IMG/VR virus record: IMGVR_UViG_2684622770_000004
Reading direction: 5' to 3' (one strand)
From: a virus
Lineage: Duplodnaviria > Heunggongvirae > Uroviricota > Caudoviricetes
DNA: 4,422 nucleotides
Made by a program: the position numbers and the translations under genes. Shown in pieces: positions 977 to 1,889 of the stretch (within the stretch, counting starts at the first letter, position 1; every line of letters starts with the position of its first letter). The notes beneath the pieces were generated by a model that was not told the origin of the DNA, searched no databases, and worked only from the letters and a program-made list of their open reading frames with translations.

Positions 977-1132
977 TTACTTCCTGGATTCGTAGTCTAC
1001 GAAGACAGCGACCTCCGTCTGGCCGGTTCGGATTCGTACCTCACAGAGGTCTTTCCTCGTTACCAGTGCCGTCACTATGACGGTTAAACAGATGACGATC
1101 AGGGCGATTAACATCGCCTTTTGCTGCTTCAT
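977..1132 (-). CDS. hok: Hok/Gef-family type I toxin (51 aa), closest to HokD/RelF and Gef
   Basis: Translation from ATG (1130-1132) to TAA (977-979) is MKQQKAMLIALIVICLTVIVTALVTRKDLCEVRIRTGQTEVAVFVDYESRK. It has the family's single transmembrane helix plus the conserved RKDLCE...GQTEVAVF...YE core and is near-identical, as recalled, to E. coli HokD/RelF apart from the C-terminus. The ORF track only shows it as the tail of a 124-aa ORF that runs through the N gap. Confidence 0.85.
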   Translation of the reverse strand: MKQQKAMLIALIVICLTVIVTALVTRKDLCEVRIRTGQTEVAVFVDYESRK

Positions 1133-1142
1133 AGCCTGCTTC

Positions 1143-1244
1143 NNNNNNNNNNNNNNNNNNNNNNNNNNNNNNNNNNNNNNNNNNNNNNNNNNNNNNNNNN
1201 NNNNNNNNNNNNNNNNNNNNNNNNNNNNNNNNNNNNNNNNNNNN
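1143..1244. other. run of 102 N (assembly gap or masked sequence)
   Basis: Counted directly in the sequence. The true length is unknown; every ORF in the track that contains X residues is an artefact of reading through it. Confidence 0.95.
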
Positions 1245-1889
1245 GATAAGAGGGCGTCCCTGAGATTTGCGGTGTAGATTGGTATCGCGCAGAGAATACA
1301 CACAGCCACAATATTCCTGCTGATAGAATTTTTCGCGCTTGCTGATTTCAATCATACGGGACGAGCCGCCCTGCTTGCGCCAGTTATAATCCCAGTACAC
1401 CATGCCCGGATAATGCGCGACGGCTCGCCGCCCACAGTCGTTAACCTGCTGCATATTTTTCCAGCGTGAAATGCCCAGTGAACTGCTGATCACACTGAAA
1501 CCATTTTCAGCGGCGTACAGCGCTGTCCGCTCAAAACGCATGTCAAAACACATGGTGCAACGGATCCCTCGTTCGGGCTCCCATTCCATTCCTTTGGCTC
1601 GTTCAAACCAGTTGTCTGTGTCGTAATCAGCATCAATAAACGGCACGCCGTGTTGTTCAGCAAAGCGAATATTCTCATCCTTACGAATTAAATACTCTTT
1701 CTGAGGATGAATGTTCGGGTTGTAGAAAAAGATGGTGTAGTCGATTCCCGAGGCCTGAAGCGCCTCCATCACCTCACCGGAACATGGAGCACAGCAAGAG
1801 TGCAGTAGTAGTTTGTTTGCCCCGTTTGGGAGCTCCAATTTGGGCCGTTTGAAATCAGCAACTGTCATAAATATGTTTATTGGGGTCAT
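1245..1889 (-). CDS. queH: QueH-like epoxyqueuosine reductase homolog (DUF208), 3' end lost in the N gap
   Basis: The translation carries [11 protein letters not shown] near the N-terminus, then [17 protein letters not shown] and EYCGCVYS near the end, which I recall as the Cys-containing signature motifs of DUF208/QueH. About 215 aa lie before the gap and the stop is presumably inside it. The start could be ATG at 1889 or ATG at 1868; neither has a clear Shine-Dalgarno. Confidence 0.65.

Follow-up and report, generated by a model that had tools for sequence, protein, structure and literature searches.

The stretch of viral DNA analysed here (4,422 nt, referred to as the window) encodes a small Hok-like toxin on its minus strand, close to a run of Ns, which raises the question of whether the toxin gene belongs to a complete hok/sok locus or is a copy that has lost its control region. 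The window contains this one N-run only, of exactly 102 N at 1143–1244, and in the list of open reading frames hok appears solely as part of a 124-aa ORF (977..1351) extending across the Ns. A previous sequence-only reading had recognized this ORF as an artefact with a Hok-family toxin as its tail, and the results presented below agree with it on both counts.

Minus-strand translation of positions 977–1132 gives MKQQKAMLIALIVICLTVIVTALVTRKDLCEVRIRTGQTEVAVFVDYESRK*. The 51-aa peptide matches the Pfam family PF01848 HOK_GEF over the entire model (81.1 bits, cutoff 22, E 4e-23, model positions 1–42 of 42) and PHROG 251, ‘MokW-like host killing' (E 1e-32). Because the Pfam match spans the full model and is joined by that of PHROG 251, the similarity to Hok is not due to chance. 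Alignment to known Hok proteins shows 98% identity (50 of 51 residues) with HokW, the toxin of the hokW-sokW system (with mokW) of Stx2 phage 933W and Sakai prophage Sp5, 90% with HokD (RelF) of K-12 and 78% with HokC (Gef). The sole residue change between the window Hok and 933W HokW is E50R. The identical RefSeq protein, WP_014532198.1, is labelled HokD in Escherichia coli genomes, while phage records carrying the identical toxin label it HokW, MokW, Gef or ‘host killer'. The peptide scores 55 with the NCBIfam Hok subfamily model (cutoff 73) and 39 with the HokA model (cutoff 89), both below the cutoffs, so the RefSeq name ‘HokD' is a label rather than the result of an equivalog test.

The peptide carries the TRKxLCE motif with its Cys, in the form of TRKDLCEV, a stretch that is invariant in the alignment with HokW, HokD and HokC. 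It shows a basic N terminus, a single hydrophobic helix and an editable Tyr at the second Cys position, consistent with the rule that this second conserved position of Hok proteins is either a Cys or a Tyr with an editable TAC(G) (PMC5630033). In the hokC, hokD and hokE messenger RNAs, the codon of the equivalent Tyr undergoes A-to-I editing by TadA, which changes Tyr to Cys and thereby provides the second Cys, required for the toxic disulfide in HokB (PMC5630033, PMC12214031). Editing of the Tyr47 codon of the window hok is likewise plausible. The 51-aa peptide is predicted to kill or arrest cells via depolarization of the inner membrane, an effect known from the 98%-identical HokW (PMC8621323).

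The control region of the gene had been described as almost entirely N from about 1133 to 1300. The masking is real, but it is confined to 1143–1244: positions 1133–1142 are genuine leader, reading GAAGCAGGCT ahead of the hok ATG, and 1245–1300 is queH coding sequence. Ten relatives were read base by base across this region. Two of them are complete E. coli genomes (L001 and L002), the flanks of which are 99.5–99.9% identical to the window. The other eight loci (L006–L013) were read among the 521 assembly-collection blocks that contain the lineage marker, that is, the IS600-truncated DUF1367 protein (48–401, minus strand). All eight carry the window's own IS600 junction with the exact truncated DUF1367 protein, and their gene order is that of the window over the stretch that begins with the replication ATPase gene and ends with the IS600 copy truncating the DUF1367 gene; in L007 and L013 the arrangement differs further upstream of the replication ATPase gene. 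One of the eight (L009) is Shigella sonnei 75/02 (CP019689). A contig scan of the genome collection gave no match to the window's prophage/IS600 junction.

In place of the 102 Ns, all ten relatives, L001 and L002 included, carry one identical sequence of 259 nt, which exceeds the N-run by 157 nt and is referred to here as the fill. In all close relatives, the hok leader is thus directly shown to be complete and identical. From this identity we infer that the hidden bases of the window match those of the relatives' fill and that the N-run is a placeholder whose length of 102 is nominal. Since the ten relatives share a single fill with every control element, the state of the locus can be judged after all, contrary to the earlier view. 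The proposal that the Ns mask the mok/Sok control region is supported, as both elements lie in the fill. The hok leader is itself a repeat, which an E. coli genome contains at 2 places in the median case and at 8 places at most, and it is matched in 4,320 of 5,426 complete E. coli genomes.

The 259 nt correspond to the end of queH, the hok promoter and the first 160 nt of the hok mRNA and, on the opposite strand, to the Sok promoter and a 71-nt Sok RNA (Table 1). The hok promoter ends 7 nt ahead of the 5′ end of the tac element. Compared with the leader of hokW in 933W, which has annotated sokW and mokW, the leader in the fill shows 92% identity, with the same tac sequence and the same Sok promoter hexamers; the fbi sequence, located 3′ of hok, is also shared with 933W. 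The model RF01794 ‘sok' of Rfam matches the relatives' fill with 117 bits (gathering score 59, E 1e-27); the window alone gives no Rfam match, the matching region being masked by Ns. Although named ‘sok', this model aligns to the leader on the strand that is sense for hok, its match reaching as far as the hok AUG. RefSeq annotation over the leader, in L001 and L002 as in other E. coli, gives the Hok coding sequence without a mok coding sequence or a sok RNA.

In its predicted fold, the Sok RNA leaves a 5′ tail of 15 nt unpaired ahead of a long hairpin and a U tail (z = -4.7). Its promoter, which agrees with the consensus at 7 of 12 positions, is absent from the promoter-scan list. It is nevertheless accepted because it is identical to the promoter of sokW, for which mutational experiments exist: sokW was silenced with primers that mutate exactly that -10 region (Takada et al. 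2021; PMC8621323). The mok frame of the relatives has 70 codons, encodes a protein 96% identical to MokW and was called by gene callers in five of the eight loci L006–L013. An overlapping mok frame had been anticipated, and in the relatives mok indeed starts upstream of hok and overlaps it; however, it is an in-frame N-terminal extension of 19 codons and not a different reading frame. An out-of-frame mok of the R1 type was also considered and rejected: in the fill, its ATG is directly followed by TAG and the frame is closed. Judging from sequence and annotation, this closed frame is normal in the hokC/hokW subfamily, where the annotated mok is an in-frame extension, and is not a mark of decay.

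Table 1. Features of the window and of the 259-nt sequence found in its relatives at the place of the N-run (fill positions are numbered from the 1143 side and refer to the relatives' sequence).
Feature	Position	Strand	Details	Basis
IS600, right end	1..94	+	Truncates DUF1367 gene	100% match to IS600 ends
DUF1367 gene, IS600-truncated	48-401	-	117 aa, against 199 aa in L002	
rem-like gene	440..727	-	95 aa; directly downstream of hok	Pfam Rem on identical gene; PHROG 340
hok mRNA terminator	857..901	-	Predicted hairpin 861-901, then six U	MFE fold and sequence
fbi (fold-back inhibition) element	908..920	-	CCUCAACGCACCC; complementary to tac GGGUGCUUGAGG	MFE fold
Segment predicted to pair with mok start region	921..933	-	Pairing partner in mok start region: AUGCUU, GCACAU	Full-length fold
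GC-rich hairpin, hok 3′ UTR	941..968	-	GGGCGGGGA / UCCCCGCCC	MFE fold of reconstructed mRNA
hok coding sequence	977..1132	-	51 aa plus stop; HokW/HokD-type toxin	Translation and Pfam HOK_GEF
TACG motif with TAC codon of Tyr47	991..994	-		Sequence; motif and position per PMC5630033, PMC12214031
hok leader stub	1133..1142	-	GAAGCAGGCU; 3′ half of hok Shine-Dalgarno region AAGGAGAAGCAGGCU	Sequence and alignment with relatives
N-run, probable placeholder	1143..1244	.	102 N	259 nt at same place in all relatives read
queH, visible part	1245..1868	-	221 aa in relatives	L001/L002 annotation
DUF977 protein gene	2451-2873	-	‘Ren-like exclusion protein'	PHROG 142, E 3e-44
DUF1376-type replication pseudogene	3641-4343	-		Alignment to L002
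Second IS600 copy, left end	4319..4422	+	Same orientation; truncates DUF1376 replication gene	100% match
Sok promoter	fill nt 4-9 and 27-32	+	TTGCCT, 17-nt spacer, TAACCT	Hexamers identical to those of sokW
Sok RNA	fill nt 39-109	+	71 nt	Homology to annotated 71-nt sokW of 933W
mok ATG	fill nt 47-45	-	GAGG 8 nt upstream	
hok mRNA 5′ end / tac element	fill nt 160	-	GGGUGCUUGAGG	
hok promoter	fill nt 196-167	-	TTGATT-18-TAGAAT	Promoter scan
queH stop	fill nt 218-220	-		Annotation in relatives
queH coding end	fill nt 218-259	-	Last 42 nt	Annotation in relatives

The toxin gene and the elements 3′ of it are directly established in the window itself. In the MFE fold of the mRNA rebuilt with the relatives' fill (450 nt), nucleotides 1–12 pair with 908–920 over 12 bp with one bulge. 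The tac-fbi closure is thus seen in the predicted fold of the rebuilt mRNA, where fbi comes from the window and its tac partner from the relatives. The fbi element is also kept in 933W hokW and K-12 hokD, and the tac and fbi sequences are identical across the three loci compared. The adjacent segment at 921–933 would pair with the mok start region, a partner that is likewise supplied by the relatives' fill. Without its 3′ end, the hok mRNA is predicted to refold at the 5′ end into a local hairpin, as expected of hok mRNAs. The terminator is missing from a simple terminator scan, which listed none; the loop of the 861–901 hairpin exceeds the limit of that scan. A promoter-like site (TTGATT-16-TAGAAT) with the same hexamers as the hok promoter occurs at 809–836 on the minus strand, between the hok terminator and the rem-like gene and just past the former.

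Comparison with hokW of 933W shows differences beyond the leader. The 3′ UTR is 77% identical up to fbi, and the terminator region differs. In 933W, hokW is found near the right genome end, between the ead/Ea22-like region and a ygiW-like gene, whereas the window hok lies between queH and the rem-like gene, after the replication genes. The host elements are also dissimilar, the window being, unlike the phage of hokW, a defective remnant bracketed by IS600. The hokW-sokW locus is a functional toxin/antitoxin pair, the toxicity of which is relieved by Sok in a partly RNase III- and Hfq-dependent manner, and it causes an approximately twofold increase in Sp5 phage release after mitomycin C; experiments on this near-identical system therefore point to a role in aiding lysis and phage release after induction (PMC8621323).

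The hokD (relF) gene of the Qin cryptic prophage of K-12 aligns with the window over its coding sequence, fbi and terminator, and has rem downstream, but homology ends ~18 nt before the ATG, at the point where relE begins. K-12 hokD has no promoter, tac, mok or Sok of its own, whereas the window's relatives have them all. K-12 hokD looks like a window-type locus after loss of its leader, and the window lineage appears to have kept it; the comparison suggests that the relBE-hokD-rem arrangement of K-12 derives from queH-hok/sok-rem by replacement of the hok leader. Decay of the kind seen in K-12 hokD, which had been considered for the present copy, is contradicted by the relatives, since the promoter, tac, mok and Sok are all present in 10 of 10. 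In the hokC (gef)/mokC/sokC locus of K-12, mok is in frame with hok and begins 19 codons ahead of it, with the Sok start 9 nt within mok, as in the relatives' fill. The tac sequence is also the same. The K-12 hokC locus is, however, disrupted downstream by IS186, and its Sok hairpin is without an 18-nt insertion that is common to the relatives' fill and 933W hokW. The hok/sok (parB) locus of plasmid R1 shows the same logic of fbi-tac closure, mok-coupled translation and antisense Sok, and the RF01794 match is a further point in common. The R1 locus is plasmid-borne and proven in post-segregational killing, and its mok frame differs from the hok frame. At the protein level, HokW, one residue away from the window toxin, is 44% identical to R1 Hok (PMC8621323).

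The surroundings of hok consist of lambdoid prophage genes (DnaC/IstB-like, DUF977 and DUF1367). The locus had been placed inside a prophage, next to a QueH-like gene, and the latter assignment is correct: queH adjoins hok upstream and its product scores 220.8 bits with Pfam QueH, on the identical relative, and matches PHROG 3217, ‘unknown function'. Its last 14 codons, stop included, fall within the gap. This prophage-borne queH (epoxyqueuosine reductase) is directly upstream of hok, an adjacency that recurs in many E. coli prophages; the adjacency of hok and rem is found in K-12 Qin as well (hokD-rem). The genes around hok are thus those of a prophage, but they form a remnant bracketed by IS600 rather than an entire prophage: between its two IS600 ends, which belong to directly repeated copies, the window holds 4.2 kb of defective prophage. 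With respect to L002, the DUF1376 gene is frameshifted, lacking 10 bp between 3967 and 3968 and containing 2 extra bp in a T-run (~4105–4112), and its 5′ end is lost to IS600 at 4318, where the alignment to L002 stops. As a record, the window looks like one IS-bounded draft scaffold from a genome of the Shigella sonnei type. In 440 of the 521 assembly blocks, the truncated DUF1367 protein is found only on contigs of 2–5 kb.

Taken together, the window very probably carries a complete, standard hok/sok locus of the hokW type, in which the 102 Ns, whether an assembly gap or a mask, stand for ~259 nt. Its mode of action can be modelled on the R1 hok/sok and hokW-sokW paradigm, and the window copy would be expected to be expressed as a module. 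A weak promoter would produce a stable hok mRNA of ~450 nt, whose 5′ 12 nt (tac) would pair with fbi at 908–920, thereby closing the mRNA and burying the mok start. Slow trimming of the 3′ end would then open the hok mRNA. The Sok RNA, abundant but unstable, would pair with the mok translation-initiation region and block translation of mok and hence the coupled translation of hok, and the resulting duplex would be marked for RNase III. Once Sok synthesis stops, Hok would be translated and inserted in the inner membrane, and the membrane potential would collapse. A role in phage release as described for hokW cannot apply here because the prophage remnant is dead, as seen in its replication gene and the IS600 truncations. 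This leaves two roles for the module, that of an inert passenger and that of a stabilizer of the segment.

The reading most directly opposed to a complete locus takes the length of the N-run at face value. If hok and the visible part of queH were truly just ~102 nt apart in the source DNA, a 157-nt deletion would have taken away tac, the hok promoter and the greater part of the Sok gene, leaving a decapitated hok without antitoxin that, if expressed at all, would be read through from queH, in analogy to K-12 hokD behind relBE. Only the mismatch between 102 and 259 nt speaks for such a deletion, and decapitated copies do exist, as illustrated by K-12 hokD with its homology starting only ~18 nt before the ATG. 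It is nonetheless very improbable. The same 259 nt are present in 10 of 10 relatives, 8 of which have the window's IS600 junction, and the region between queH and hok measures 259–262 nt in all 40 of the E. coli genomes listed with queH-hok adjacency. A contig scan of 185,579 species-representative genomes found none in which the gap flanks are spaced by 90–115 nt. Moreover, multi-copy sequences such as this leader tend to interrupt short-read assemblies, and scaffolders bridge the breaks with Ns whose number is nominal.

The remaining readings accept a complete locus and concern what it does. It might have no function and simply be carried along in a dead prophage, as silent or harmless as the hok loci on the K-12 chromosome and too young to have decayed. 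This possibility, which we regard as doubtful but worth serious consideration, fits with the non-functional state of the prophage remnant and with the result of PADLOC, which gave no defence-system match for hok, the rem-like gene, QueH or the 118-aa protein. According to the summary of Pedersen and Gerdes 1999 in a recent preprint (bioRxiv 10.1101/2025.08.07.668861), the chromosomal hokA, hokB and hokC loci were reported not to mediate post-segregational killing, and an intact sequence does not therefore prove activity. Against a mere passenger, all control elements are intact, the sequence is invariant in ten genomes while the adjacent replication gene has decayed, and the 98%-identical hokW-sokW is toxic and controlled by Sok in tests. 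A superinfection-exclusion or abortive-infection device directed at incoming phages, the first of which had been suggested from the prophage setting, is improbable. The one related observation is that R1 hok/sok at high copy number affects T4 modestly (PMC8621323), but the hokW-sokW experiments point the opposite way, to release of the resident phage (PMC8621323), hok is not enriched near defence systems (bioRxiv 10.1101/2025.08.07.668861), and the PADLOC result holds for hok and its neighbours alike. If any gene of the window deserves an annotation of the exclusion type, it is the DUF977 gene rather than hok. Finally, hok/sok could serve the chromosome segment itself as an addiction module, protecting the IS600-flanked 4.2-kb remnant from deletion. 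The two direct IS600 repeats should recombine readily and thereby remove the remnant; such recombinants would still contain the stable hok mRNA but no longer Sok, and would be killed, which would explain the persistence of a dead fragment and of an invariant hok/sok across the Shigella sonnei-type lineage. We consider this unlikely to be the case, although a true 102-nt junction with a leaderless hok behind queH is less likely still.

A complete hokW-type hok/sok locus is not new as such. The genes hokW, mokW and sokW are annotated in 933W, the subtype has been tested experimentally in Sp5, and the enrichment of hok in prophages is documented (bioRxiv 10.1101/2025.08.07.668861). The discovery value is accordingly small, the exact subtype being present in most E. 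coli genomes, as the 4,320 leader matches among 5,426 genomes indicate. The locus is more instructive for annotation: runs of Ns turn small toxin genes into artefactual long ORFs, and an assembly gap can often be resolved from sister genomes that have the same IS junctions.
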